Assembly: GCA_030649135.1 (NCBI GenBank)
Contig: JAUSGI010000005.1
Span: 5,754-69,753, forward strand
Reading direction: 5' to 3'
DNA: 64,000 bases
Source of the DNA: a bacterium
GTDB taxonomy: Bacteria; Patescibacteriota; Minisyncoccia; Phycocordibacterales; Zambryskibacteraceae
Shown here: positions 2,413 to 62,611 of the stretch, piece by piece
How positions within the stretch are numbered: position 1 is the first letter of the stretch
Layout: every line of letters begins with the position of its first letter
The notes under the pieces: model-generated
Database searches by the model: none
Told to the model about the DNA's origin: nothing
The model's input: only the letters and a program-made list of their open reading frames with translations
Program-made: the position numbers and the translations under genes

Positions 2413-3147
2413 ATGATCAAAGATGTATTTGATAAGGCTTTTAAGAGTTTCTGCAAACTCCTGACTTTTTACAGATATTCCTGAAAGTCTTTTCCCGAGT
2501 ATGGCTATTTTCACACGATCGCCATAAATCGTTATGTCACTTGTAATCGGATACTTTTCATGATCTATTTTAATTCTTTCTCCAGTGCTATCAGACGGTT
2601 TATCGATAATTTTCGAGGTGTAAATTGATTTCGACCTGATTCCTCTGGAAATCCTTTCCTCTCGCATATTCGTCGTTTCTTTTTCAGTAAATAGATCTTT
2701 TACTAAATCTAGTGGATATACCATATAGACTGGTTCGTCATCGAGTTTTTTTACAAAAGTATCATCGTTGGAACTCAAGACCCCTTCCTTACCATCGAAA
2801 AACTGGACTATAGGTTTTCCTACTCGCTCTCCTTGGAGACCTCTCAATTGGGGGATGATGATATCTAAGCTTTTTTTGTTTTCCTCTAGAAGGTGAATTT
2901 GTCTCTCAACAAAGAAACCGAGTTTCTCCGGTGGTTCGGCTAGGTAATAAGTCTTTTTACCTATATTGGTCTCACTTACAAGACCCTTTTTAGCCAAAGA
3001 GTCGAGAATGACATAAGTTGTTGGTCTTTTAACTTTCGCTTTTTGTGAGATCTCTGATATTTGAGCCTTGTCGAAAGAGAGGAGGGCGACATAGACTGCC
3101 GCTTCCTTATCGCTCAATCCTATATCCCTGAGATATTTCTCGAACAT
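2407..3147 (-). CDS. TrmB-family transcriptional regulator
   Basis: N-terminal winged-HTH pattern MFEKYLRDIGLSDKEAAVYVALLSF...EISQKAKVKRPTTYVILDSLAKKGLV, as in TrmB regulators. Confidence 0.6.
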   Translation of the reverse strand: MFEKYLRDIGLSDKEAAVYVALLSFDKAQISEISQKAKVKRPTTYVILDSLAKKGLVSETNIGKKTYYLAEPPEKLGFFVERQIHLLEENKKSLDIIIPQLRGLQGERVGKPIVQFFDGKEGVLSSNDDTFVKKLDDEPVYMVYPLDLVKDLFTEKETTNMREERISRGIRSKSIYTSKIIDKPSDSTGERIKIDHEKYPITSDITIYGDRVKIAILGKRLSGISVKSQEFAETLKSLIKYIFDHK

Positions 3148-3180
3148 ATATTAAATGATAGCATGACAGAAACTCTGCTG

Positions 3181-4119
3181 TTACTTCCTCCTTGAATGAA
3201 ACCTTTTGTGGGTATCGCGAAGCGCCTTGTCGGTGACGTGGGTATATATTTGAGTTGTCGAAATATTGGCGTGGCCGAGAAGCATTTGGACGCTACGAAG
3301 GTCGGCGCCATTGCTTAAAAGATCAGTAGCAAAGCTGTGACGAATAACGTGAGGTGTCACTTTTTTTGAAATGCCGGCTTTTATCGCATAATGCTTCACA
3401 ATTCTTTCTATCGAGCGGCGAGTGAGAGGAAGGGAGTCTTTGGTTTTAGTGTTTTTCCCTACCTGAACAAAGAGGGCATCATTCATATCCTTGCGAGCTT
3501 TGAGATATTTGGATACGGCGTTTCTCGCTTCATCAGAAACAAAGACTACCCGCACCTTACTGCCTTTACCCCTGATAGAAAACTCCCCGACAGAAAGATC
3601 AGTATCATTATTTAACGAGCAGAGTTCGGATACACGAAGCCCTGTGGAGAAAAGCATTTCAAGGATAGCTTTGTCGCGAAGTTCTTTAATTCCATCGCCT
3701 TTGGGCATCTCAAGTAGGCGAGTGAGTTCGGCAGGGGAGATGAGATCAAGAGAGCGTTCTCCAACTTTAGCCAGTTCAATGCGTTCTGCTGGCAGACTTG
3801 TAATTTCTTGCCGAGCCAGATACTTGAGAAAAGAGCGTAAGGCAATCAGATAATAATTCTGCGTCTTCTTCGACATGGTTTCACCGGTTTGTCGGTTATT
3901 GCCGGTCGACTGGCGGTTAAGCCACATCCTAAATTCTCTCACCACTTCGTCACTAATATCCTTCGGATTTTTTACTTCGGTATGCTTAAGAAAAACGGAA
4001 AGGTAGTGGTCATAGTTCTCAATAGTCTTGAGTGCCCGGCCCTTTTCGATCTCGGTATATTCCAGAAATCCTCTCTTTAATCGCTCTAGTTCACTAACAT
4101 TCCCCATATTGTGCGACAT
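3181..4119 (-). CDS. tyrosine site-specific recombinase (XerC/XerD / phage-integrase family)
   Basis: Catalytic-domain motifs LRVSELCSL, HVIRHSFATDLL and LLGHANISTTQIYTHV (R-H-R-Y signature). Confidence 0.85.
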   Translation of the reverse strand: MSHNMGNVSELERLKRGFLEYTEIEKGRALKTIENYDHYLSVFLKHTEVKNPKDISDEVVREFRMWLNRQSTGNNRQTGETMSKKTQNYYLIALRSFLKYLARQEITSLPAERIELAKVGERSLDLISPAELTRLLEMPKGDGIKELRDKAILEMLFSTGLRVSELCSLNNDTDLSVGEFSIRGKGSKVRVVFVSDEARNAVSKYLKARKDMNDALFVQVGKNTKTKDSLPLTRRSIERIVKHYAIKAGISKKVTPHVIRHSFATDLLSNGADLRSVQMLLGHANISTTQIYTHVTDKALRDTHKRFHSRRK

Positions 4120-11235: not shown

Positions 11236-11266
11236 AGCAAGCTGATAAAAGGGCTATAATTCAATT

Positions 11267-11920
11267 ATGAGAAACGTAAAACTAGTTGAAAACGAACTTT
11301 ATCACGTGATGAACCGAGGTGTAGATAAAAGGTCAATCTTCCGGGACAAAAACGACCTGGACAGATTTTTTGAGGGAATGCAGAAACTAAATGTGCTGAC
11401 TCCAACTGGGCACTTAGCTCGTCGACTCCCGGAGTCGACAGACAAGAAGCTTGTTAAGTTCATAGCGTATGATTTGAACCCAAACCACTTTCATTTTATC
11501 TTGGAACAGGCTGCAGAAAGAGGCATAGAACGGCTAATGAATCGGCTCTGCATATCGCATTCAAAATATTTTAATCTTAAGTATCATAGGATGGGCACTT
11601 TATTCCAAGGTAGATTCAAAGCAATTCATGTTGATACGAACGAATACCTGCTTCACTTAAGCGCTTATGTGAATCTAAACGATGTAGCACACACCCGCAA
11701 CAGTAAACCGGGACTGTCTAAATCAAGTTGGGTAGAATATATTGGCGAGTCAAGAGAAGAATTTTGCGATAAGTCAATAATACTTGATCAATTTAAAAAT
11801 GGAGGAGAATATAAGAGGTTCGCTGAAAGCACTTTGCGGGACATTATTGATCGAAAGATTTTGCTAGCAGAACTAGAAGACGAATTGATGTCGATTCCCG
11901 GAGTCGACAAGGCGATATGA
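11267..11920 (+). CDS. REP-associated tyrosine transposase (RAYT, IS200/IS605-like Y1 HuH transposase)
   Basis: YHVMNRGVDKRSIF, HuH motif NHFHFILE, LFQGRFKAIHVD, and the catalytic-Tyr region YLLHLSAYVNLN. Flanked by REP-like hairpins. Confidence 0.8.
   Translation: MRNVKLVENELYHVMNRGVDKRSIFRDKNDLDRFFEGMQKLNVLTPTGHLARRLPESTDKKLVKFIAYDLNPNHFHFILEQAAERGIERLMNRLCISHSKYFNLKYHRMGTLFQGRFKAIHVDTNEYLLHLSAYVNLNDVAHTRNSKPGLSKSSWVEYIGESREEFCDKSIILDQFKNGGEYKRFAESTLRDIIDRKILLAELEDELMSIPGVDKAI
11421..11439. repeat. REP-like palindrome copy 2 (GTCGACTCCCGGAGTCGAC) inside the RAYT coding sequence
   Basis: Encodes RRLPESTD within a segment that looks like an extra insertion relative to other Y1 transposases. 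Confidence 0.65.
11890..11908. repeat. REP-like palindrome copy 3 (GTCGATTCCCGGAGTCGAC) at the RAYT 3' end
   Basis: Overlaps the last RAYT codons, just before the ksgA start. Confidence 0.65.
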
Positions 11921-19355: not shown

Positions 19356-19796
19356 ATGCGTTTCCAAGTTCCTCAATTCATAGAAATAGAAGACAAGATT
19401 TTCGGCCCTTTGACTTTCAAACAGTTCATTTACATTGCGGGTGGAGTGGGTGTTGCTGTCATGCTTTTTGTCTTCCTGCCGAAATTTTTGGCCGCTCTCG
19501 TTGCTCTGCCGGTGGTGCTCTTCGGCGCAGCATTGGCTTTTTACAGACTCAACGGTAAACCCTTCGTGAACGTAGTCGAGGCTTTTGTGAAATACACCTT
19601 CACCAGCAAACTTTATATTTGGAAAAAGGAGGAAAAGCAAGTGATAAGCAATCAACCCCAAATGGACAGGAAACCGATTGAACAGGTGTATGTTCCAAAA
19701 CTTTCCGGCTCAAAGCTGAAAGAACTTACTTGGAGCCTAGATATCAAAGAGGCTACCAATCCGGTAACCTCAAACGAGGACAAGTCTAGTGTATAA
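19356..19796 (+). CDS. PrgI-like (VirB3-like) small membrane protein
   Basis: MRFQVPQFIEIEDKIFGPLTFKQFIYIAGGVGVAVMLFV... matches the PrgI-family pattern found next to VirB4 in Gram-positive-type T4SS. Confidence 0.5.
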   Translation: MRFQVPQFIEIEDKIFGPLTFKQFIYIAGGVGVAVMLFVFLPKFLAALVALPVVLFGAALAFYRLNGKPFVNVVEAFVKYTFTSKLYIWKKEEKQVISNQPQMDRKPIEQVYVPKLSGSKLKELTWSLDIKEATNPVTSNEDKSSV

Positions 19797-19803
19797 TTAG
19801 CAA

Positions 19804-20445
19804 ATGTCTCCGAGTACAAATGCTACTCAAGAATTTGTTCCCATCAAGGAAGTGCGCGACGGCGTCGTCCTACTGAAAGATGGCGGCATGCGTGCCATTC
19901 TCTTGTGTTCGTCTCTAAACTTCGCGCTTAAATCCGAGGATGAGAGGCAGGCTATTCTTCTGCAGTTCCAGGATTTTCTTAACTCCCTAGACTTCTCGAT
20001 TGAGATAGTAGTGCAGTCGCGCAAACTCGATATCCGGCCATACATAGCGCTACTCGAAGGGCAAGAAAAAATACAAACCAACAGTCTGATGAAAATACAG
20101 GTTCGAGAGTATATTGAGTTTATCAAGAGTTTCACCGAAAACACGAATATCATGACTAAAAACTTTTTCATTGTGGTGCCATACAGTCCGGCCATGTTGA
20201 ATGCCCATAAATCAGGGGGTATCGTCTCGCGCCTTGGATTCGGTACCAAGAGAGAGCGCGCGGCCGCCACAGAAGCGGGATTTGACGAAAATCGTAGCCA
20301 ACTGGAAGAGCGGCTATCGGTGGTTGAACAGGGACTTATCCGTACCGGTATCCGCGTGGTGCGCCTCGGCACGGAAGAAGTCATTGAACTTTTTTACAAG
20401 GCCTTTAATCCGGGGGAAACGGAAAAGCCACTAAAAGTGAGCTAG
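19804..20445 (+). CDS. hypothetical protein (resembles the N-terminal region of VirB4/TraC)
   Basis: EFVPIKEVRDGVVLLKDGGMRAILL... Ends in a strong palindromic hairpin. Confidence 0.45.
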   Translation: MSPSTNATQEFVPIKEVRDGVVLLKDGGMRAILLCSSLNFALKSEDERQAILLQFQDFLNSLDFSIEIVVQSRKLDIRPYIALLEGQEKIQTNSLMKIQVREYIEFIKSFTENTNIMTKNFFIVVPYSPAMLNAHKSGGIVSRLGFGTKRERAAATEAGFDENRSQLEERLSVVEQGLIRTGIRVVRLGTEEVIELFYKAFNPGETEKPLKVS

Positions 20446-20469
20446 CTCACTTTTAGTGGCTTTATTCAC
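20427..20469 (+). terminator. perfect 16/16 palindrome GCCACTAAAAGTGAGC-tagc-TCACTTTTAGTGGC followed by a T-run
   Basis: The stop codon of the upstream ORF sits in the loop. Likely an intrinsic terminator or an operator. Confidence 0.55.
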
Positions 20470-20492
20470 AATAGATAATTAACAATTTACAA

Positions 20493-20852
20493 GTGAAACA
20501 ATTCAATTTCTTGGATTGGCCGGTGTATAAAGATGCGCAAGAATTAGTCTCTTTTTCATTAGAAATAGTAAGGAAATTACCAAAAGAACACCGGTTTGAG
20601 TTAAGTTCACAATTGATTAGATCTAGTTCTTCAGTCGTTTTAAATATAGCAGAGGGAAGCGGTAAGTCATCTAGGAGAGACTTTTCTCATTTTATTGATA
20701 TAGCACTGGGTTCTCTCTATGAAACTGTTGCGAACATGGATATTCTAAAGACAAACCAGCTAATCAACAATACAGACTTTGAACTAGCCAAGGAAAAGGC
20801 TGCGAGTATCGCTAGACAACTAGGCGGCTTTAGGAAAAAGCTCAAAACATGA
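20493..20852 (+). CDS. four-helix-bundle protein (23S rRNA intervening-sequence-protein family)
   Basis: Pattern ...VVLNIAEGSGKSSRRDFSHFIDIALGSLYETVANMDIL... typical of this family. Located here between T4SS genes, not in an rRNA. Confidence 0.65.
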   Translation: MKQFNFLDWPVYKDAQELVSFSLEIVRKLPKEHRFELSSQLIRSSSSVVLNIAEGSGKSSRRDFSHFIDIALGSLYETVANMDILKTNQLINNTDFELAKEKAASIARQLGGFRKKLKT

Positions 20853-20880
20853 CTCAAATTCACCTATTGTTTATTGTTCA

Positions 20881-22776
20881 TTGTTCATTGATAATTACTA
20901 TATGAGTATTCTCGATAAATTATTTGGAAAGGGGGGAGCAAAAAAGCCGGATATTTCTTCTATCTTGCCTCAAGAAATTTTTGAAGCGGGGCTACTTGAA
21001 CTCAAAGATATTATCGCGCCTTCCGCACTCAAGATTACCCCGAAAGAAATCAATCTGGGCGAGAAAATTTTACGAAGCTTCTTCGTAATTTCCTATCCGC
21101 GCTTTCTTTCTGAAGGATGGTTCTCGCCCATTATCAATATGGATAAGGTTTTCGATATTTCTATTTTTATTCACCCCATCGAAACTTCGAGGGTGTTACG
21201 CCAATTCCAAAGAAAGGTAGCCGAGGTTCAAAGCCAAATCCATAGCCGGGAAGAAAAGGGTTTGGTGCGTGACCCGATGCTTGACGTCGCTTACCAGGAC
21301 CTTGAGAATTTGCGTGACCAACTCCAGCAAGCGCAAGAGAAACTCTTCGATGTCGGCCTCTATATAACCATCTATGGCGACAGCGACTCGGAACTTGATA
21401 AAGCGGAATCCGAAATCAAATCAATTCTTGAGGCCAAACTTATATACGTCAAGCCCGCACTCTTTCAACAGGAACAGGGATATAAAAGCACTCTTCCTCT
21501 CGGCAACGACCTTCTGGAAGTGCACTCAAAATTGAATTCTTCTCCGCTCTCATCTCTCTTCCCATTTACTTCGTTTGACCTCACTTCCGACAAAGGCATT
21601 CTCTACGGCATCAATAGGCACAACTCGTCTCTGGTGCTTTTCGACCGCTTCTCGCTTGAAAATTATAATTCCATCATGTTCGCCAAATCCGGAGCCGGTA
21701 AATCTTATGCCACCAAACTCGAGATTTTGCGTACCCTGATGTTTGATACGGAGGTGATAGTGATAGACCCGGAGCGAGAGTACGAATATATGGCAGAAGC
21801 TACCGGAGGGAGATACTTCAAAATTTCTCTTAATTCCGAGCACCACATTAACCCGTTTGATTTGCCCGTACCGGGGCCGGACGAAAGCGCCGCCAACGTG
21901 CTTCGCTCAAATATCATCAACTTAGTCGGCCTCTTTCGCCTGATGATGGGCGGTCTCTCCGCGGAAGAGGATGCCATCATCGACCGAGCTATTACCGAAA
22001 CTTATGCTCTAAAGGATATTACGGTGGAATCGGATTTTCGCACCATTGAGCCCCCACTCATGTCAGATTTTGAAATGGTACTCATCGGCATGGAAGGCGG
22101 CGAATCTCTAGCTCAACGTCTTTCCAAATATACCAAGGGCACTTGGTCAGGATTTATCAATAGACCTTCTAATGTCGATATCAACAGAAAATTCGTGGTC
22201 TTTTCACTGCGCGACATGGAAGATGAGCTTAAGCCCATCGCTATGTACATTGTCACTCATTACATTTGGAATGCCATCCGCAAAGAACTAAAGAAGCGTC
22301 TACTTGTTATCGATGAGGCATGGTGGATGATGAAGTCGGAAGATACAGCTTCATTCCTCATGGGTCTGGTCAAGCGCGGCCGTAAATATTTCCTTGGAGT
22401 AGCCACCATTACCCAAGATGTCGGGGACTTCTTGAAAAGCCCCTACGGCTTGCCAATTATCACCAACTCCTCCATCCAGATTCTTTTGAAACAATCGCCG
22501 ACAACTATAGGCGAACTCCAGAAAACTTTTAATCTTACAGATGAGGAGAAGTATCTCTTGCTCGAATCAGACAGGGGAGAGGGCATCTTCTTCGCCGGCC
22601 TCAAGCACGTGGCAATTAAAAATATTGCCTCATATACGGAAGACCAAATTATCACTTCCGACCCATCTCAAGTTTTGGCCATCAAGAAAGCCAAACAAGA
22701 CGCCATGGAAGATAAGGAGGTCGCCTTGAAAGCCGCGAGCGCTGAATTGAAAGAAGCTGAAACAACAAACACATAA
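20881..22776 (+). CDS. VirB4/TrbE-family type IV secretion ATPase
   Basis: Walker A FAKSGAGKSYATK, Walker B LLVIDEAWWMM, overall VirB4 architecture. Confidence 0.85.
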   Translation: MFIDNYYMSILDKLFGKGGAKKPDISSILPQEIFEAGLLELKDIIAPSALKITPKEINLGEKILRSFFVISYPRFLSEGWFSPIINMDKVFDISIFIHPIETSRVLRQFQRKVAEVQSQIHSREEKGLVRDPMLDVAYQDLENLRDQLQQAQEKLFDVGLYITIYGDSDSELDKAESEIKSILEAKLIYVKPALFQQEQGYKSTLPLGNDLLEVHSKLNSSPLSSLFPFTSFDLTSDKGILYGINRHNSSLVLFDRFSLENYNSIMFAKSGAGKSYATKLEILRTLMFDTEVIVIDPEREYEYMAEATGGRYFKISLNSEHHINPFDLPVPGPDESAANVLRSNIINLVGLFRLMMGGLSAEEDAIIDRAITETYALKDITVESDFRTIEPPLMSDFEMVLIGMEGGESLAQRLSKYTKGTWSGFINRPSNVDINRKFVVFSLRDMEDELKPIAMYIVTHYIWNAIRKELKKRLLVIDEAWWMMKSEDTASFLMGLVKRGRKYFLGVATITQDVGDFLKSPYGLPIITNSSIQILLKQSPTTIGELQKTFNLTDEEKYLLLESDRGEGIFFAGLKHVAIKNIASYTEDQIITSDPSQVLAIKKAKQDAMEDKEVALKAASAELKEAETTNT

Positions 22777-24430: not shown

Positions 24431-25653
24431 TGAAAAAAATTTTAATCATCTTAGTAGCAATTATCGCAATCACTCTAGCCGTTTTCTTTGGGTGGTATTT
24501 GTTCTTCCAAAATTCCGATATGCCCGTAGGAGAGGTGGTTAGAAATGTTTTGCCATTCGGTTCCGGTGGAGATACTTCCTTACCAGTGAACCTGCCGGGT
24601 GGAAACGAGCAATTGCCTAATGGACAACAACTGCCGGCAGACGAGTTTGCCAGACCAAATGCCAAACTCTTCCGCATTGCCGATACCCCCATAGCCGGTG
24701 CGGTAGTATTTAAAAGAGGAAACCAAACGGTCGTACGCTACGTTGACCGCGCCACAGGACATATCTATGATGCCGATTTGGCAACGCTCGAGAAGGTAAA
24801 GGTGTCCAACAACACCCTGCCCAAAATTTACGAGGCCTATTTCAGAACAGACGGCAACGCAGTACTTCTCCGGTCTCTCAAGGACAACTCCGATGTGGTA
24901 GAAAATTTATCTCTCACCCTTACTCCTCCCCAATCATCGAGCACCCTATACGCCATCTCATCTACAGCCCTACGCGGTAACATTGGAGCTGTCGCTGTGG
25001 GTTCCGGCAACACCCTCGTATACACTCTGCGAGACACCGCTACCGTGGTTGCTTCGGCCTTCAATGGCACCGGGGCCAGAATCCTACTTACCTCACCCTT
25101 CACAGACTGGCGACTGGCATCGGCCGGAAACAGTTTAGTGCTATACACGAAAGCAAGTGTTAATGCGCCAGGTTATGCCTACGCCCTAAACACGTCCGGC
25201 GGGGCATTAAAAAAAGTTATTGGACCGCTCAACGGATTGGTAGCTCTGCCCGATAGTTCCGGCAATCGAGTACTGTATTCATATGTCGAGAATAACAAGA
25301 CAAAATTGGTGACTAAGAATCTTACCAATAATATCGTTTCCGAAATATCCCCCGTCACATTGGCTGAAAAATGTCTTTGGAGTATAAGAAACGCAGGCAT
25401 CCTTTTCTGTGCCGCGCCCACTGACAACTTGGGACCTGACGAACCTGATAGTTGGTACAGGGGAGTAACGCACTTCTCCGACCGTATTTGGCTCTTTGAC
25501 ACCAAAAGCGGAGTGTCCCAAGTCTTGGTAGAACCAAAGCAGAGCCTCGATACGGAGCTTGACGCGGTAGACCTAAAACTTTCCCCCAGCGAAGACTATC
25601 TCGTTTTCACAAATAGAACCGACCTCTCACTTTGGGCACTTAGACTTGAGTAG
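24430..25653 (+). CDS. hypothetical membrane-anchored protein
   Basis: N-terminal TM. No recognisable domain. Confidence 0.5.
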   Translation: MKKILIILVAIIAITLAVFFGWYLFFQNSDMPVGEVVRNVLPFGSGGDTSLPVNLPGGNEQLPNGQQLPADEFARPNAKLFRIADTPIAGAVVFKRGNQTVVRYVDRATGHIYDADLATLEKVKVSNNTLPKIYEAYFRTDGNAVLLRSLKDNSDVVENLSLTLTPPQSSSTLYAISSTALRGNIGAVAVGSGNTLVYTLRDTATVVASAFNGTGARILLTSPFTDWRLASAGNSLVLYTKASVNAPGYAYALNTSGGALKKVIGPLNGLVALPDSSGNRVLYSYVENNKTKLVTKNLTNNIVSEISPVTLAEKCLWSIRNAGILFCAAPTDNLGPDEPDSWYRGVTHFSDRIWLFDTKSGVSQVLVEPKQSLDTELDAVDLKLSPSEDYLVFTNRTDLSLWALRLE

Positions 25654-26356
25654 CCCTGATGTTTTTCTTGATAAAAAGTTCCTGCCCAATACTGAACAGG
25701 TTGGTGGTAAGCCAGTAGAGAGCAATAACTCCGGAAATTTTGTAGGAAATAAAAAAAACTATCACCGGAAAGAAATATTTCATTTGAGTCTGCATGCTAC
25801 GGGTAAGATTGTTGCCAAATGAATCTCCTTTTGGCTGAACCTGTCCCTGCATAGAAAGTTTGAACTGGAAAAAGGTAGAGACGGCGGCCAAAAAAGCGAT
25901 CACGGCACTTTTGGCCGTGATGTCCAAAAAGCCAAGAAAGGTGGTGCTAATATGGCTCGGCTCGGTCACGAATGAATATAAAAGGGCGGAGTTAACTTCC
26001 GGAAAGTGCAGGAAAATTTGATACAAAGCGAAGATAACGGGAATTTGGATAATAATGACCAATATGCCCGAGAATGGGTTAACCCCTTTTTCTCTGTATA
26101 GAGCGAGGGTGAGTTTCGCTTGCTCCTCGGCCTTATCTTTATATTGCTCTTTAATCTTGGCTAAAGCGGGAGCTATTTCTGTCATCTTTGCTTGCGCAAG
26201 TACTGCCTTTCTGGAAAGAGGGAAGGTTGCCAAGCGAACTAGAATAGTGAGGATAATAACCATCACCCCGGCATCGGCCCAGGGCAACACCTTAAACAAA
26301 AACATTAAAATATTGTAGAGCGGGTCGAAAAAAAACGTGTGATAGAGAAAAGACAT
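25640..26356 (-). CDS. yidC: membrane protein insertase YidC (short Oxa1-type)
   Basis: Multi-TM protein with the YidC core. Synteny with rnpA and rpmH. Confidence 0.85.
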   Translation of the reverse strand: MSFLYHTFFFDPLYNILMFLFKVLPWADAGVMVIILTILVRLATFPLSRKAVLAQAKMTEIAPALAKIKEQYKDKAEEQAKLTLALYREKGVNPFSGILVIIIQIPVIFALYQIFLHFPEVNSALLYSFVTEPSHISTTFLGFLDITAKSAVIAFLAAVSTFFQFKLSMQGQVQPKGDSFGNNLTRSMQTQMKYFFPVIVFFISYKISGVIALYWLTTNLFSIGQELFIKKNIRATQV

Positions 26357-26365
26357 CGGTTAATT

Positions 26366-26611
26366 TTATCCTTTTTTAAAGAGCTCGGCTAGTTCAGCTT
26401 CAAGAGCACGGCCTTTTATTTTTTCAGCCCCAGGTTTGGCAACAATAAAATATGTAGCGGGTTTTAGATTAGAAATAAATGTGCGTGCAATCGGGCGGAC
26501 GCGCCGGCGAATTCTATTTCTTATAACGGCCTTTTTGGAAACCTTTTTAGAAACAGAGATTACTACTTTCACCGCATGGAAAGATTTAATCATTAAATAA
26601 AAGTGGTTCAT
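26366..26611 (-). CDS. rnpA: ribonuclease P protein component (short)
   Basis: KKAVIRNRIRRRVRPIARTF...YFIVAKPGAE matches the RnpA core. The start overlaps the rpmH stop. Confidence 0.8.
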   Translation of the reverse strand: MNHFYLMIKSFHAVKVVISVSKKVSKKAVIRNRIRRRVRPIARTFISNLKPATYFIVAKPGAEKIKGRALEAELAELFKKG

Positions 26612-26745
26612 TAGACGGCTAAACGCTTGCGACCCTTGCGGCGTCTATTCCTGATAGTTCTCCTGCCGGTAGACGTTTTTTGCCTCGAGAGAAACCCGTG
26701 AGTTCTGGCTCGCTTGCGCCTTTTTGGTTTGTATGTTGTGGACAT
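26611..26745 (-). CDS. rpmH: 50S ribosomal protein L34
   Basis: 44-aa peptide MSTTYKPKRRKRARTHGFLSRQKTSTGRRTIRNRRRKGRKRLAV. Not in the ORF track (too short). Confidence 0.8.
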   Translation of the reverse strand: MSTTYKPKRRKRARTHGFLSRQKTSTGRRTIRNRRRKGRKRLAV

Positions 26746-26848
26746 CTTTTTCTTAACAGGTTATAAACACATTATAAACATTTTTCGAGTCTTTAACAAG
26801 TTTTTATCATACTCCAAAAAGATATACTATGTGAACCTTACAAACTCT
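26746..26848. promoter_or_regulatory. oriC-associated region upstream of dnaA with DnaA-box-like 9-mers
   Basis: TTATAAACA at 26760-26768 and 26771-26779, plus TTATCATAC near 26795. Confidence 0.45.
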
Positions 26849-28195
26849 ATGGACTATAAACAACTTTGGCAAAGCGTTTTGGTGGAAATCGAGTTAACTG
26901 TCTCCAGCGCCAACTTTGCCACTTGGTTTAAGGATACTCGTATTGTTAAAGAAGATAGCGGGGTAGTGGTGCTCTCCGTGCCAAACGCCTTTGTGAAAGA
27001 GTGGCTCCTGACCAAATACCACAGTACCATCCTTAGAAGTCTAAGGAATCTTGAAACTTCTGTCCACGCTGTCGAGTATGTGGTAAACAAAGAGGAAACC
27101 CGCAAAAGAGAGGAGAGACCGAGCGAGGCAACTCTTTATACCAAAGAGCTTCCCCTACCGGAAACCCAGGTGAATAGGGACGACAACTTAAACCCGCGCT
27201 ACACATTCGAGACCTTTGTCGTAGGCCCGTTCAACGAGCTGGCCCACGCTGCCGCCCAGGCTGTTATAAAAAAGCCCGGCATTATGTATAACCCACTTTT
27301 CATACACGGGGCCACCGGCCACGGCAAAACCCACCTGATTCAAGCAATCGGCAACCATATTAAAACAACCAGTCCGGGCAAGAAAGTTTATTACATGACT
27401 TCTGAGCAATTCGGACAAGACTGTATGAACGCTCTCCAACACCAAAAAATGACCATTTTTAAGGAAAAATACCGCAAATATGACGTCCTCATTGTTGACG
27501 ATATTCAATTTTTCTCGGATAAACAGAAGTTTCAAGAAGAATTGTTCCATCTGTTTAACACTCTTTACGACAACAACAGACAAATCATCTTTTCTTCCGA
27601 CAAACACCCCTATTTTATTACCGGACTGGAAGAGCGATTGAAGTCACGGCTTTCTGCCGGTATGACCGTTGACATTCCGGCGCCCGATAAAGAATCGAGG
27701 ATAGCTATTATCTCCGCCAAAGCACTCCAGCAGAACATCCCTCTGACACCGGAAATCATAGACTACCTCGCCCACACTATAAACGGCAATATCAGGGACC
27801 TAGAGGGGGCCGTTAATACTCTGCTATGCCATGCCCAACTCAAAAGTAGAGAAATATCAATGATTGACGTCAGAAATTACATCAAGAACAATGTTAAGCC
27901 CAAGAAAACCATCGCCGTCAAGGACGTGGTCAGGATTGTTTCCGACTTTTACAATATTAAAGAAGACAGTATTTACGAGAAAACCAGACATAAGGAGGTT
28001 ATTAGGCCTCGGCAAATTGTTATGTATATCTTGCGTGAGGATTTCAACATTTCTTATCCGTCAATAGGCCAAAAACTGGGAGGCAGGGACCACACCACGG
28101 TTATCTATTCATGTGAAAAAATAAAGACCGACATCAAAGTGGACCAATCCTTACTGGAAGAGGTCGGCCAGATTAGAAATTTATTAACCGTGTAA
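26849..28195 (+). CDS. dnaA: chromosomal replication initiator protein DnaA
   Basis: AAA+ Walker A GATGHGKTHL, Walker B VLIVDDIQF, and the C-terminal DNA-binding domain. Confidence 0.95.
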   Translation: MDYKQLWQSVLVEIELTVSSANFATWFKDTRIVKEDSGVVVLSVPNAFVKEWLLTKYHSTILRSLRNLETSVHAVEYVVNKEETRKREERPSEATLYTKELPLPETQVNRDDNLNPRYTFETFVVGPFNELAHAAAQAVIKKPGIMYNPLFIHGATGHGKTHLIQAIGNHIKTTSPGKKVYYMTSEQFGQDCMNALQHQKMTIFKEKYRKYDVLIVDDIQFFSDKQKFQEELFHLFNTLYDNNRQIIFSSDKHPYFITGLEERLKSRLSAGMTVDIPAPDKESRIAIISAKALQQNIPLTPEIIDYLAHTINGNIRDLEGAVNTLLCHAQLKSREISMIDVRNYIKNNVKPKKTIAVKDVVRIVSDFYNIKEDSIYEKTRHKEVIRPRQIVMYILREDFNISYPSIGQKLGGRDHTTVIYSCEKIKTDIKVDQSLLEEVGQIRNLLTV

Positions 28196-46654: not shown

Positions 46655-47500
46655 TTTTTGGTGAACGGGACAGAAATGCGCGCTGCGGGCGCCAACAATG
46701 ATGCGCTTAATAACACCTCGGCAACCTCTTTTCCCACAGGATAGCCCTGTGCGCCGGTAAGCATGGTGATGGTTTTGGAAATGACCTTTCTCGCCCTTAA
46801 TGTTTCGATAGTCGGACATAGAGTCTCCACCCAAATCAATGCCTTTTCTCAAAGTTTCTTTCGTTGCCCTAAACATGGCTCGAAGATTTTTCTCCGGAAT
46901 CTGGTTTGGATGCGAGAGGGGATGAACTCCGGCGTGCCAGAGAATTTCATCGGAGTAAATATTGCCAATACCGGATATCAAACTTTGGTCCATTAAAACT
47001 TGCTTAATCCTGCCCTTTGGCCTTTTCTGTATTTGTAAATTGAAAATTTTAAATTGAAAATTTTTATCAAGGGGTTCTGGTCCAAGATGTTCGAGATGTA
47101 GAGATTTCTCAAGTTCTGCCGTCCTCACCAGCGTTACTTTCGCAAACTTGCGCATATCGGAAAGGACCAAATGTTTGCCGTTATCGAGTTTGAAATCAAG
47201 TCGGATAAAAGTAGTGGCAGGGCGGTCATAGACAAAATGTCCCGTCATTTTCATATGGACAATGATAGTGTGTCCGCCGGATAGGTGAATAAGCACATTT
47301 TTTGCCCGTCTTTCTGCTCGTAGTATTTTCTTACCCCCGACCTTCTTTCTGAAAATTGCAAAAAACTTTGGATTCTTGATGTTATCTTTGCCTGCATGGT
47401 AGGAGCTGTTATAACTGGTTTCTACACCAATGATTTTCTTGTGTTTGACGGTTCTATTCAAACCATTGACCGTAGTTTGGACTTCTGGCAGTTCAGGCAT
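46643..47500 (-). CDS. formamidopyrimidine-DNA glycosylase / endonuclease VIII (Fpg/Nei family)
   Basis: N-terminal MPELPEV catalytic start, H2TH domain, C-terminal zinc finger. Confidence 0.9.
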   Translation of the reverse strand: MPELPEVQTTVNGLNRTVKHKKIIGVETSYNSSYHAGKDNIKNPKFFAIFRKKVGGKKILRAERRAKNVLIHLSGGHTIIVHMKMTGHFVYDRPATTFIRLDFKLDNGKHLVLSDMRKFAKVTLVRTAELEKSLHLEHLGPEPLDKNFQFKIFNLQIQKRPKGRIKQVLMDQSLISGIGNIYSDEILWHAGVHPLSHPNQIPEKNLRAMFRATKETLRKGIDLGGDSMSDYRNIKGEKGHFQNHHHAYRRTGLSCGKRGCRGVIKRIIVGARSAHFCPVHQKLFK

Positions 47501-49234: not shown

Positions 49235-49271
49235 GTTGCCATTATAATGCAAAGTCTGCTAAGATGCTCCC

Positions 49272-60867: not shown

Positions 60868-60940
60868 GGTGCCTATGGTGTAACGGTTAACACTCGAGCT
60901 TGTGGAGCTCGCAATCAGGGTTCGATTCCCTGTAGGCACC
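60868..60940 (+). tRNA. tRNA-His (anticodon GTG) with encoded G-1; attachment site of the downstream integrated element
   Basis: G-1 plus acceptor GTGCCTA/TAGGCAC, anticodon loop TTGTGGA, T-loop TTCGATT, discriminator C, CCA encoded. Confidence 0.85.
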
Positions 60941-62611
60941 CCAAACGGTATCTAATATAACTGCAGAAGGTTTATTGGATGCCACCTCGAAAGTCTCGAC
61001 TTTGTGTCGGGATTTTTGAGTTTTAGGGGCAACTTTCGACTTTGATTTGCCGGCCACCACCGGGCTGAATTCTACCGCCATGTCGGTCACGATCCGTGGC
61101 ATCTGGCCTTCTTTGTATTTATTGGTGAATACCAATCCTTCGGCTTGCATCAATGCTCGTATGATCGGGCTTGGTATGACCGTTACGGCTTTCTTGTCGG
61201 TAACCTCGAAGCGTTCCCAGTAGAGGCCGAGGAATAGTCGCTTCATCTCATCCGGAGCTTTCATATATGCCTCGTATGCGTTTCTCACAAAAAGCAGGAT
61301 GTCTTGGAGTTCGTCGATCCGCATGTTGAGTTTTTTGTCCTGGGTGTAGATTTCGTCCTGTATGCCCTCGACCTGTTCCTTGATCTTCACTTTGACTCGG
61401 GTGAAATCGTCATCTGAAATCAGTCCGGCAAATAGTTTTTCTTCGGCCGTGTCGCGCTTCTTTTCCAGCACCATCTTTTGAGTGTTGAGGGCTTTCTTGT
61501 CTTTATTTATGACTTCCTTTCGACCGCTATATATTTTCTCGATCTTGGCGACCATTCGATTCACGAATGTCGGAGTAAATCCGATCAGTTTGAAAAGATC
61601 GGCGATCTGCTGTTCCAAATCCCAAACCTCCACGTATTTGTCAGTGCATTTGATCTGATCGCCGGACCGGTTGCAGTGATAGTAGGATTTATTTTTCTTT
61701 GGGTGATGTTCGGCGGTGTATCGCTGGCCGCAGATCGCGCAGAATGTAAGGCCTCGCAGTATGAAATTAAACTTTTGGCGACGGCAGGCATAGCGATTGT
61801 GTTCGGCCATCACCAGCTGGGCGCGTTCCCATGTTTCTTTGGTGATGAGCGGTTTATGTTTTCCGGTGTTCACCAATCCTCGCCAGCGCATCTCGCCATA
61901 ATAGAAAGGATTTTTAAGTATCTCGATCATCTTGCTATGCGCGAGCCGCTTGCCGGCGTGAGTTCTAAATCCTTTTTTATATAAAGTGTCGCGGACTTCG
62001 TAAACGGAATAGTCACTGGTCACATACATCTTGAATGCCTCTTGAATAAGCGGTGCGCGTTCTTCGTCGGTAATAATGATCCTCTTTTTCTCATCACTCG
62101 GATCGCCGGCATTAAGATATCCGTTCGCAACACCAGTCGGCCACCAGCCATCCCAAAACTTCTGCTCGAGGCTCTTTATGGTTTTTCTTGAGGTGATCTG
62201 CGACTGGAGCTGGTTTACACCGGCGATCACCAAGTCCATGAAGTTTCCCTCCGGAGAGTCGGTTATGCCCGGCTGGGAAACTGAAAACAATTCGACGTTA
62301 TGCTTTTTGAGGATCGCTTTGATCTGCATGTGATCGAGCGCGTTTCTCGCAAGCCGGTCGGTGTCTTGGATAAACACGGCGCGAATAGCCTTGTCGTCTT
62401 GGACCCGAAGTAGCATATCCTGAAGTCCCGGACGGTTCATATTCGTGGCTGATCGTCCCGGGTCTTCAAAGACTCCTTCGTTCGCAAGCTTGAATTTATT
62501 ACTTTCCTCGATTGCTCGCTTGCAGAGTTTGAGCTGGGTAGCGAGGGAATGGTGGCCGTCCTCGGCTTGTTCTTCAGTCGAGACACGGCAGTAAATTAAT
62601 GCATGTTCCAT
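60887..62611 (-). CDS. large serine recombinase (integrase)
   Basis: N-terminal resolvase catalytic domain (IYCRVSTEEQ), recombinase domain, Cys-rich zinc ribbon, coiled-coil. The last about 18 codons are the reverse complement of the tRNA-His 3' half. Confidence 0.85.
   Translation of the reverse strand: MEHALIYCRVSTEEQAEDGHHSLATQLKLCKRAIEESNKFKLANEGVFEDPGRSATNMNRPGLQDMLLRVQDDKAIRAVFIQDTDRLARNALDHMQIKAILKKHNVELFSVSQPGITDSPEGNFMDLVIAGVNQLQSQITSRKTIKSLEQKFWDGWWPTGVANGYLNAGDPSDEKKRIIITDEERAPLIQEAFKMYVTSDYSVYEVRDTLYKKGFRTHAGKRLAHSKMIEILKNPFYYGEMRWRGLVNTGKHKPLITKETWERAQLVMAEHNRYACRRQKFNFILRGLTFCAICGQRYTAEHHPKKNKSYYHCNRSGDQIKCTDKYVEVWDLEQQIADLFKLIGFTPTFVNRMVAKIEKIYSGRKEVINKDKKALNTQKMVLEKKRDTAEEKLFAGLISDDDFTRVKVKIKEQVEGIQDEIYTQDKKLNMRIDELQDILLFVRNAYEAYMKAPDEMKRLFLGLYWERFEVTDKKAVTVIPSPIIRALMQAEGLVFTNKYKEGQMPRIVTDMAVEFSPVVAGKSKSKVAPKTQKSRHKVETFEVASNKPSAVILDTVWGAYRESNPDCELHKLEC

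Follow-up and report, generated by a model that had tools for sequence, protein, structure and literature searches.

A segment of 456 bp, at positions 20446–20901 of a 64-kb stretch of a Parcubacteria chromosome (the window; coordinates are window positions except where another locus is named), is probably a gene cassette of the kind represented by the intervening sequences (IVSs) that carry an open reading frame (ORF) in 23S rRNA. It is lodged precisely at a junction, 1–2 nt wide, of an operon resembling a type IV secretion system (T4SS), between the naturally separate halves of VirB4: ORF213, which encodes a stand-alone N-terminal domain, and the gene for the VirB4-type ATPase. The cassette encodes a 119-aa four-helix-bundle (4HB) protein that matches PF05635 (E 1.1e-27, 96.7 bits against a cut-off of 33.8) and TIGR02436 (96.6 bits, cut-off 24), in agreement with the initial annotation, which had placed it in the rRNA-IVS protein family. 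Such genes are annotated as '23S rRNA IVS protein' or 'four helix bundle protein' in thousands of genomes without an assigned function, and IVSs with a PF05635-type ORF have so far been known only from rRNA.

That the segment was inserted is seen most directly by comparison with relatives, in which the T4SS-like operon neighbourhood is conserved. The comparison set comprised 80 genome loci collected by VirB4 homology and six found via the 4HB protein; 84 loci were scored. In about 58 of these 84 the ORF213 and VirB4 genes abut, at distances of −4 to +30 nt and with no insert. At these empty sites the ORF213 stop codon is followed by 1–5 nt (or an overlap) and then the VirB4 ATG, and the closest relative, L001, with 96% VirB4 identity, has an empty site. 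When the window is aligned with the empty sites of L001, L002, L003, L005 and L006, the surplus is exactly 20446–20901; its first bases are the right arm of a palindrome considered below, and its GC content is 35%, compared with 45–48% in the flanking genes. Judged by these alignments the segment is an insertion, as had been proposed for the 4HB gene. Because relatives align from ATG 20902 (MSILDK...), this is most likely the VirB4 start rather than TTG 20881; the description of the gene as lying between a VirB4-N-like ORF and the ATPase was correct, with an ATPase that probably begins further downstream than first thought. No direct duplication is seen at the insert borders in comparison with empty sites, and the 4HB gene is the sole ORF of the insert. 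The segment does not qualify as an insertion sequence or transposon, having neither a transposase nor a target site duplication, and the motif of the arms differs from cassette to cassette. The locus and its relatives offer a clean comparison of filled and empty sites for a type of element that, as described below, also occurs in tRNA spacers and rRNA genes.

Table 1. Positions of the features described in the text, in the window unless a locus handle is given.
Feature	Position	Strand	Evidence or remark
PrgI-family (VirB3-like) gene, operon context	19356..19796	+	PF12666, E 3.8e-13
ORF213, stand-alone VirB4 N-terminal-domain gene ('TraC-like'), 213 aa	19804..20445	+	NCBIfam matches; precomputed PF26593 of homologues; a separate gene of 212–230 aa in relatives
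Perfect 20+20-nt palindrome/hairpin	20424..20463	+	Absent at empty sites; arms covary in 8 orthologous variants
Entire inserted cassette, 456 nt, ORF213 stop to VirB4 ATG	20446..20901	+	Empty-site alignment; 84-locus gap table; GC
5′ heptamer array ACAATAG ATAATTA ACAATTT ACAA (~3.5 heptamers)	20468..20492	+	Predicted pairing with 3′ array; variable in orthologues
119-aa 4HB gene, GTG start, PF05635/TIGR02436, Avd fold	20493..20852 (TGA end)	+	Profiles, model, dN/dS
3′ heptamer array TATTGTT TATTGTT CATTGTT CATTGAT, inverted relative to 5′ array	20865..20892	+	TRF, lag-7 scan
Promoter-like element for VirB4: TTGTTT-17 nt-GATAAT, then TACTAT (6 nt) to ATG 20902	20867..20895	+	
VirB4-type ATPase, 624 aa, remainder of VirB4 architecture	20902..22776	+	NF045971, PF19044 and others
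TATAAT-like boxes before ATG, examples	11251-11266, 19790-19803, 49235-49250		
ORF-less heptamer stem-loops	L009 4919-5009; L046 4933-5000; L073 4861-4955; L034 4884-5000; L051 1614-1728		
Other small-gene inserts in same operon	L083 1235-1764; L084 1273-1767; L167 920-1365		
Serine recombinase	60887-62611	-	
IS1595-type transposase	33992-34861	-	
Tyrosine recombinase	3181-4119	-	

The insert has an ordered anatomy: palindrome, 5′ heptamers (ACAATNN), ORF, 12 nt, four inverted heptamers (NNATTGT) and the VirB4 ATG. TRF places the 3′ array at 20866–20890, and by both TRF and a lag-7 scan it is the sole strong period-7 array in the window. The arms, 20464–20492 and 20867–20895, are 29 nt long and 72% complementary, and are paired in the minimum free energy structure around the ORF; the fold of the window copy has a z-score of −3.8. 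An ORF within terminal inverted repeats that make a long stem, and a length of ~400–450 nt, are features of an rRNA IVS that the cassette, at 456 nt, shares. The IVS of Coxiella burnetii ('S23p') is 428–444 nt long, with the ORF in a loop and a ~28-bp inverted-repeat stem that is cut by RNase III (PMC4990558), and the window cassette shares with the 23S rRNA IVSs of Leptospira and Coxiella the PF05635 protein, the size class and the placement of the ORF between inverted arms. It departs from them in lying between protein genes and not in a helix of an rRNA gene (no rRNA was detected in the window with Rfam), in its extra target-derived hairpin, in a 3′ arm that doubles as a promoter-like element and in the weakness of its arm pairing. 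Of the suggestion that this was a degenerate intron or an IVS-like element, then, the second half stands on anatomy and size. The first does not: the search for intron-like structure that had been proposed as a check returned nothing at the Rfam gathering score, matches in E-value mode across 20200–21100 were at chance level, and the best group I match scored 14.9 bits against a cut-off of 50, so that the segment does not classify as a group I or group II intron. A second, weak period-7/14 array (ATTTTAAATTGAAA, 2.4 copies) was noted at window positions 47031–47064, in or near an fpg-like gene; there is no 4HB gene there.

The same anatomy recurs across the family. Unrelated PF05635 genes (29–62% identity) occupy at least three other junctions of the T4SS operon, all co-oriented with it. 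We analysed 92 distinct PF05635 cassettes, including 80 metagenome loci picked by protein similarity only, and found a lag-7 signal in both flanks (means of 14.4 and 15.1 of 24, versus ~9 at other lags or in controls), with 55% of cassettes exceeding the controls' 99th percentile in at least one flank. Arrays are about four copies long (interquartile range 3.5–4.4). Of 19 cassettes in which both arrays are strong, 17 have them inverted, and the flank-to-flank duplex has z < −2 in 48% of cassettes. The anatomy is thus fixed, at some four heptamers, an ORF and some four inverted heptamers, and the heptamer motif itself follows the protein: where two proteins are 70% identical or more, 81% of the pairs have it in common, versus 1–5% of pairs below 50%. 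Since the motif tracks the protein clade, arms and gene appear to be inherited as one unit. In a minority of cases (L108, L110, L117, L097) the two arrays are direct rather than inverted, for instance with GGTCTTC arrays on both sides, and for this reason an RNA stem cannot fully explain the arrays.

In L150 a PF05635 ORF (1226–1585) interrupts a 23S rRNA gene at helix 45, the classical position, in ~459 nt of extra sequence with a stem of −55 kcal/mol; in L096 another (2992–3348) interrupts a 16S rRNA gene in its 5′ domain, with ~394 nt extra and a stem of −65 kcal/mol. The arms of both are heptamer-array stems whose pairing is stronger than in the window copy, and a 16S rRNA IVS carrying a PF05635 ORF may be unreported so far. 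The same arms are found on cassettes between or next to tRNA genes (L099/L100 2968–3357, L104 271–636, L122 2989–3351, L155 783–1139, L116 and L098). The 4HB gene of L101 is followed directly downstream by a group I intron (84.9 bits). On the Nostoc edaphicum plasmid pNe_5 (L173), an annotated four-helix-bundle gene at 1342–1832 has nrdB on one side and an nrdA-like gene on the other and is antisense to the two; its flanks contain eight heptamers of the GTAGGGA type and, inverted, five TCCCTAC heptamers, a sequence arrangement that ties the PF05635 family to the cyanobacterial heptamer repeats.

Two further arrangements touch on how such cassettes relate to their hosts. At the same ORF213–VirB4 junction, other genomes have ORF-less inserts of 68–117 nt, made up only of inverted heptamer arrays, which fold as stem-loops (−31 kcal/mol and z −5.7 in L046) and may be miniature derivatives of the cassette. 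In this they resemble miniature inverted-repeat transposable elements (MITEs) or REP-like stem-loops, but they differ in having no terminal sequences conserved across copies, a motif that changes with each element and no cognate transposase that we could identify. In L005 (3885–3957) the frame of PrgI continues through an inverted copy of its own end and the whole 5′ heptamer array (...NQNPVTQDSGSLPTTNNSQPTT, followed by the stop) and ends in an ATGA over the 4HB start; since the frame reads through both, that cassette has extended the host PrgI protein, and its sequence leaves room for PrgI-4HB coupling in translation, which may occur.

How long the window cassette has been in place can be judged from its closest homologues. 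The 4HB proteins that are 72–88% identical to the 119-aa protein are all encoded at the same ORF213–VirB4 junction; synonymous divergence (pS 0.6–0.95) is alike in ORF213, the 4HB gene and VirB4, with synonymous sites saturated; and the 4HB gene has a dN of 0.127 and a dN/dS of ~0.04 among orthologues, values from which strong purifying selection on the ORF is read. Same-site orthologues, saturated pS and low dN/dS together show that the cassette has long been resident here, diverging in step with its flanks, and that its protein is under selection. Presence is patchy all the same: carriers are monophyletic in 0 of 200 bootstraps and are interleaved with empty-site genomes, and a clade of the empty-site L007 with the carriers L081 and L171 has 100% support. 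On these trees the patchiness reflects either repeated clean loss or the exchange of alleles by recombination. At the ORF213–VirB4 junction the non-sister genomes L007 (4992–5015) and L010 (4977–5000) have a near-identical spacer of 24 nt, TTCGACAAGCTCAyCATAAATAAy, a hint that alleles have been exchanged here by recombination.

The persistence of the gene invites a plainer explanation, namely that the secretion or uptake operon simply has it as an accessory gene passed on vertically, such as a regulator or chaperone, with the hairpin as its upstream terminator, the heptamers as slippage-prone spacer and nothing mobile about it. Retention at one site through saturating divergence, purifying selection comparable to that on the neighbouring genes, the invariable co-orientation with the operon and a near-invariant 3′ block that resembles ordinary regulatory DNA would all follow. 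The gene is nevertheless absent from most relatives, including the closest, and the carriers do not group together, as the fully supported clade around L007 illustrates; the insert is low in GC; and unrelated family members with the same repeat anatomy occur at other operon junctions, in rRNA genes, in tRNA spacers and in the Nostoc nrd operon. We therefore consider this explanation improbable.

The palindrome at the upstream border, AAAGCCACTAAAAGTGAGCT|AGCTCACTTTTAGTGGCTTT, is perfect and has no loop. Its left arm (20424–20443) coincides with the 3′ terminus of ORF213's coding sequence, its right arm (20444–20463) is an inverted copy of the left, and the TAG stop codon of ORF213 (20443–20445) straddles the axis, its AG (20444–20445) belonging to the right arm. 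The initial annotation had seen a perfect palindrome containing the upstream stop codon but gave its arms as 16 nt, where there are 20. A palindrome of 20-nt arms is expected by chance ~64000 × 4^−20 (~6e-8) times in such a stretch, and it is the only one of its size in the 64 kb; the next best have GC-rich arms of 12–13 nt, and the window's ordinary hairpins are rich in GC and make no use of coding sequence. The stem is AT-rich and 17–20 bp long and was not called by the terminator scan; a U-rich tail, TTTATT, arises when the last, basal A-T pairs open, and most orthologues have such a tail.

Hairpins were tabulated sequence by sequence; registers and loop sizes differ, so there is no single consensus structure. 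The eight orthologous variants, with arms of 13–20 nt, are all Watson-Crick-paired, with at most one G·T pair. Wherever the coding arm has changed synonymously, the opposite arm has changed to match, and in L081 the arms pair again after a shift of register. The stop codon is overlapped by a perfect hairpin of 10 bp or more at 11 of 71 ORF ends that precede a 4HB gene (15%), compared with 0.9% of 1839 other ORF ends. Other cassettes, too, have hairpins built out of the upstream gene's 3′ end: 24+24 nt without a loop in L053, 18+18 in L005, and further cases in L019, L009, L004, L055 and L017. Two of the target-derived hairpins are zero-loop perfect palindromes centred on T|AG. We considered and rejected the stop-overlapping hairpin as a general trait of the family, as it occurs in only 15% of cases, mostly in the Parcubacteria operon. 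Palindromes derived from the target and kept perfect are an unusual evolutionary signal by themselves, and the near-absence of wobble pairs in these sequences suggests refreshment by fold-back copying at the DNA level or very strong selection.

It could be argued that the palindrome is a passive scar of insertion, an inverted duplication of the target left by fold-back priming or hairpin-end repair and without function. Independent cassettes elsewhere carry the same sort of target-derived inverted copy, as in L053 and L005; two are centred without a loop on T|AG; wobble pairs are almost lacking; and empty sites have no hairpin, all of which fits such an origin. A scar should decay, however, and all eight orthologous variants are still perfectly paired although synonymous sites are saturated, in L081 after a change of register. 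Perfect pairing in the face of saturation requires ongoing correction or selection, and a purely passive scar is accordingly a distinctly improbable account. Scar and function are compatible in that the hairpin could have been made at insertion and kept afterwards.

At the other border, the 3′ block ATTGT..GATAATTA has 29 of 33 positions invariant across nine lineages, and the 12 nt before it and the 4–9 nt after it vary freely. In all orthologues GATAAT stands 6–9 nt ahead of the VirB4 ATG. As judged from sequence, a −10-like box 6 nt before this ATG has the geometry of a leaderless mRNA, and the arrangement is not peculiar to the cassette: only 4 of 48 long ORFs have motifs resembling a Shine-Dalgarno sequence, TATAAT-like boxes peak 6–7 nt before the ATG, and ORF213 has its own TATAAT-N6-ATG, a pattern suggesting that leaderless mRNAs are widespread in this Parcubacteria genome. 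What looked like a cassette arm near 35.9 kb was discarded, being just a promoter-like TATAAG box.

The initial annotation had envisaged that an intron-like or IVS-like insertion split a longer ancestral virB4 into ORF213 and the ATPase. The homology it required is real. ORF213 gave no match in a local Pfam scan, but it matches NCBIfam models for VirB4_plasma (positions 101–233 of 894, E 1e-11), the CD1110 family (positions 2–118 of 752) and the stand-alone TrsD/TraD family (NF041427), and by these matches it is homologous to the VirB4 N-terminus; the 624-aa protein belongs to the CD1110 family (NF045971, 380 bits against a cut-off of 325, positions 185–736 of 752). N-terminal piece and remainder thus fit full-length VirB4 models with the insert exactly between them. 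Against a split, however, the two are already separate, abutting genes (−4 to +30 nt) in the ~58 loci without an insert, so that the insertion did not divide virB4, and the order ORF213 then VirB4 is the same in relatives, a finding that had been named in advance as speaking against the proposal. ORF213 homologues are stand-alone proteins numbering in the thousands (the best 120 listed are 202–230 aa long), with a stand-alone TrsD/TraD family among the models, and no intron RNA was detected by Rfam. Gram-positive conjugation systems with TrsD/TraD and a TrsE-type ATPase likewise have a two-gene VirB4, with a ~200-aa N-terminal piece encoded directly upstream of the ATPase; the likeness is one of the host operon and not of the cassette, and it accounts for a split older than the insertion. 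By comparison of these loci, VirB4 in two genes is the ancestral state and is universal within this clade, and a split caused by the insert is very unlikely indeed.

The AlphaFold model of the 119-aa protein (pLDDT 95.4) has four helices and superposes on 2GSC (TM 0.90), 2RLD (TM ~0.8) and the accessory protein Avd, 4DWL (TM 0.81). Avd is a pentamer that grips an 11-bp RNA stem-loop encoded beside its own gene (bioRxiv 10.1101/2023.10.23.563531), and the likeness extends to the crystals of the family members 2GSC and 2RLD, which have five chains each. The differences are that sequence identity to Avd is only 12–14%, that the Avd equivalog is far below its cut-off, and that the window locus has no reverse transcriptase and no template or variable repeats. 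The notion that the protein is the Avd of a complete or remnant diversity-generating retroelement has next to no probability: the Avd fold and weak matches to the bAvd and DivGenRetAVD models point that way, but the match to equivalog NF033474 reaches 27 bits, with the cut-off at 80, no RVT domain was found among the window ORFs scanned, tblastn of three proteins only gave no second copy of neighbouring sequence that might serve as template or variable repeat, and the gene neighbourhood is that of a conserved T4SS-like operon.

On the reading that we prefer, a resident IVS-type cassette, such an element could live in any transcribed non-coding spot, and four functions can be proposed for its parts. 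There is about an even chance that the target-derived hairpin with its U-rich tail ends the upstream transcript or protects its 3′ end. By analogy with rRNA IVSs, the heptamer arrays might pair in RNA as a ~25–29-bp stem, from which a double-strand RNase would cut the cassette out of the transcript; at this locus we regard that as somewhat short of an even bet. The −10 box of the 3′ array may, just as plausibly as not, be an outward promoter for a leaderless VirB4 mRNA, replacing the translational coupling that insertion had removed. More tentatively, the protein might bind its own flanking repeat or stem RNA, by homology with Avd, an idea that becomes testable because the motif tracks the protein clade. 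The cassette would then be insulated in both directions, with a stem-loop to close the upstream cistron and a promoter-like box to restart the downstream one, and the wobble-free hairpins suggest that fold-back copying at the DNA level would maintain the first of these. If so, the locus would provide an example of a selfish insert inside an essential operon that causes no polar damage, on the proposal of a hairpin upstream and a promoter downstream.

A number of observations weigh against this scheme. Of the 92 cassettes, 45% have no strong array. In the window copy the panhandle is weak (duplex −16 kcal/mol, z −2.2), and orthologues differ in the 5′ array with no compensation in the 3′ array, which is invariant; the latter must therefore be conserved for a reason other than the pairing of RNA arms, and a DNA- or protein-binding function, such as that of a promoter, is more likely. 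The promoter-like site itself fails a standard sigma-70 scan and has a weak −35, and the −10-N6-ATG feature is restricted to the ACAAT/CAACAAC subfamily; as a trait of all cassettes it was rejected. About half of the operon cassettes have no stop-overlapping hairpin, and where there is one at this junction it is AT-rich, with the U-tract partly in the stem and with L088 and L081 lacking a U-rich tail, so it is not a textbook terminator. Co-divergence with the flanks means that this copy may no longer move. Finally, the functional steps are all computational inferences, and mobility is deduced from distribution alone.

A broader proposal would make PF05635 genes the cargo of a widespread, so far undescribed class of minimal mobile cassettes bounded by some four inverted heptamers, with the motif co-evolving with the protein, an Avd-like pentamer that recognises its own heptamer or stem, as RNA or DNA, and transcribed non-coding spots (rRNA helices, tRNA spacers, operon junctions) as targets. 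Taken as a whole we think this rather unlikely, though its consequences would be considerable. The rRNA IVSs, many orphan heptamer arrays of the short tandemly repeated repetitive (STRR) type and the operon inserts would be one phenomenon, and target-derived perfect hairpins would be the signature of insertion or maintenance by fold-back, without a transposase. How rRNA IVSs arise and move has been a question since the 1990s, for which only hypotheses are offered (PMC4990558). Intergenic heptamer arrays are known, as the cyanobacterial STRR, the 'four heptanucleotide repeats' of Geobacter and the TAACTGA repeats of Beggiatoaceae, with ~4–5 copies, sometimes in opposite-strand pairs, and with their function unexplained. 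The arrays in the window differ from those reports in being the arms of a PF05635 gene cassette, a link that the reports do not draw, and they offer a possible explanation for some of the intergenic arrays of cyanobacteria, Geobacter and others. A literature search, incomplete for subscription journals, found no publication linking PF05635 genes with heptamer arrays, and the supplement on Geobacter heptanucleotide repeats does not mention the family.

The surroundings of the operon are chromosomal, with genes for UvrD, KsgA, YidC, DnaA, DnaN, PolA and RuvB in the window. Since yidC (−), dnaA (+) and dnaN (+) lie at 25640–29503, 3–9 kb downstream of the cassette, the T4SS-like operon adjoins a probable replication origin; GC skew gave no orientation of the locus relative to that origin. 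Searches of the window by tblastn with three proteins found no other copies, the weak match at 27920–28084 falling inside dnaA, and neither the 4HB protein nor ORF213 nor the Y1 transposase described next was assigned to a defence system by PADLOC.

A gene for this Y1 (IS200-like, PF01797) transposase lies between uvrD and ksgA (11267–11920, +), and Y1_Tnp genes are found near the same T4SS operon in L085 (3761–4273) and L167 (5484–5948). Y1 enzymes work on single-stranded DNA hairpins, which by analogy makes this one a candidate trans-acting factor for the hairpin and stem elements. The window also holds a large serine recombinase gene, directly beside genes for tRNA-His and tRNA-Leu, an IS1595-type transposase and a tyrosine recombinase (Table 1). 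In relatives, the junctions of the T4SS operon host other small genes as well, namely a YafQ-like toxin with a DUF6364 partner, an NYN-domain gene and a DUF4258/DUF2283 pair, and the intergenic junctions of this operon are generally permissive for small inserts.

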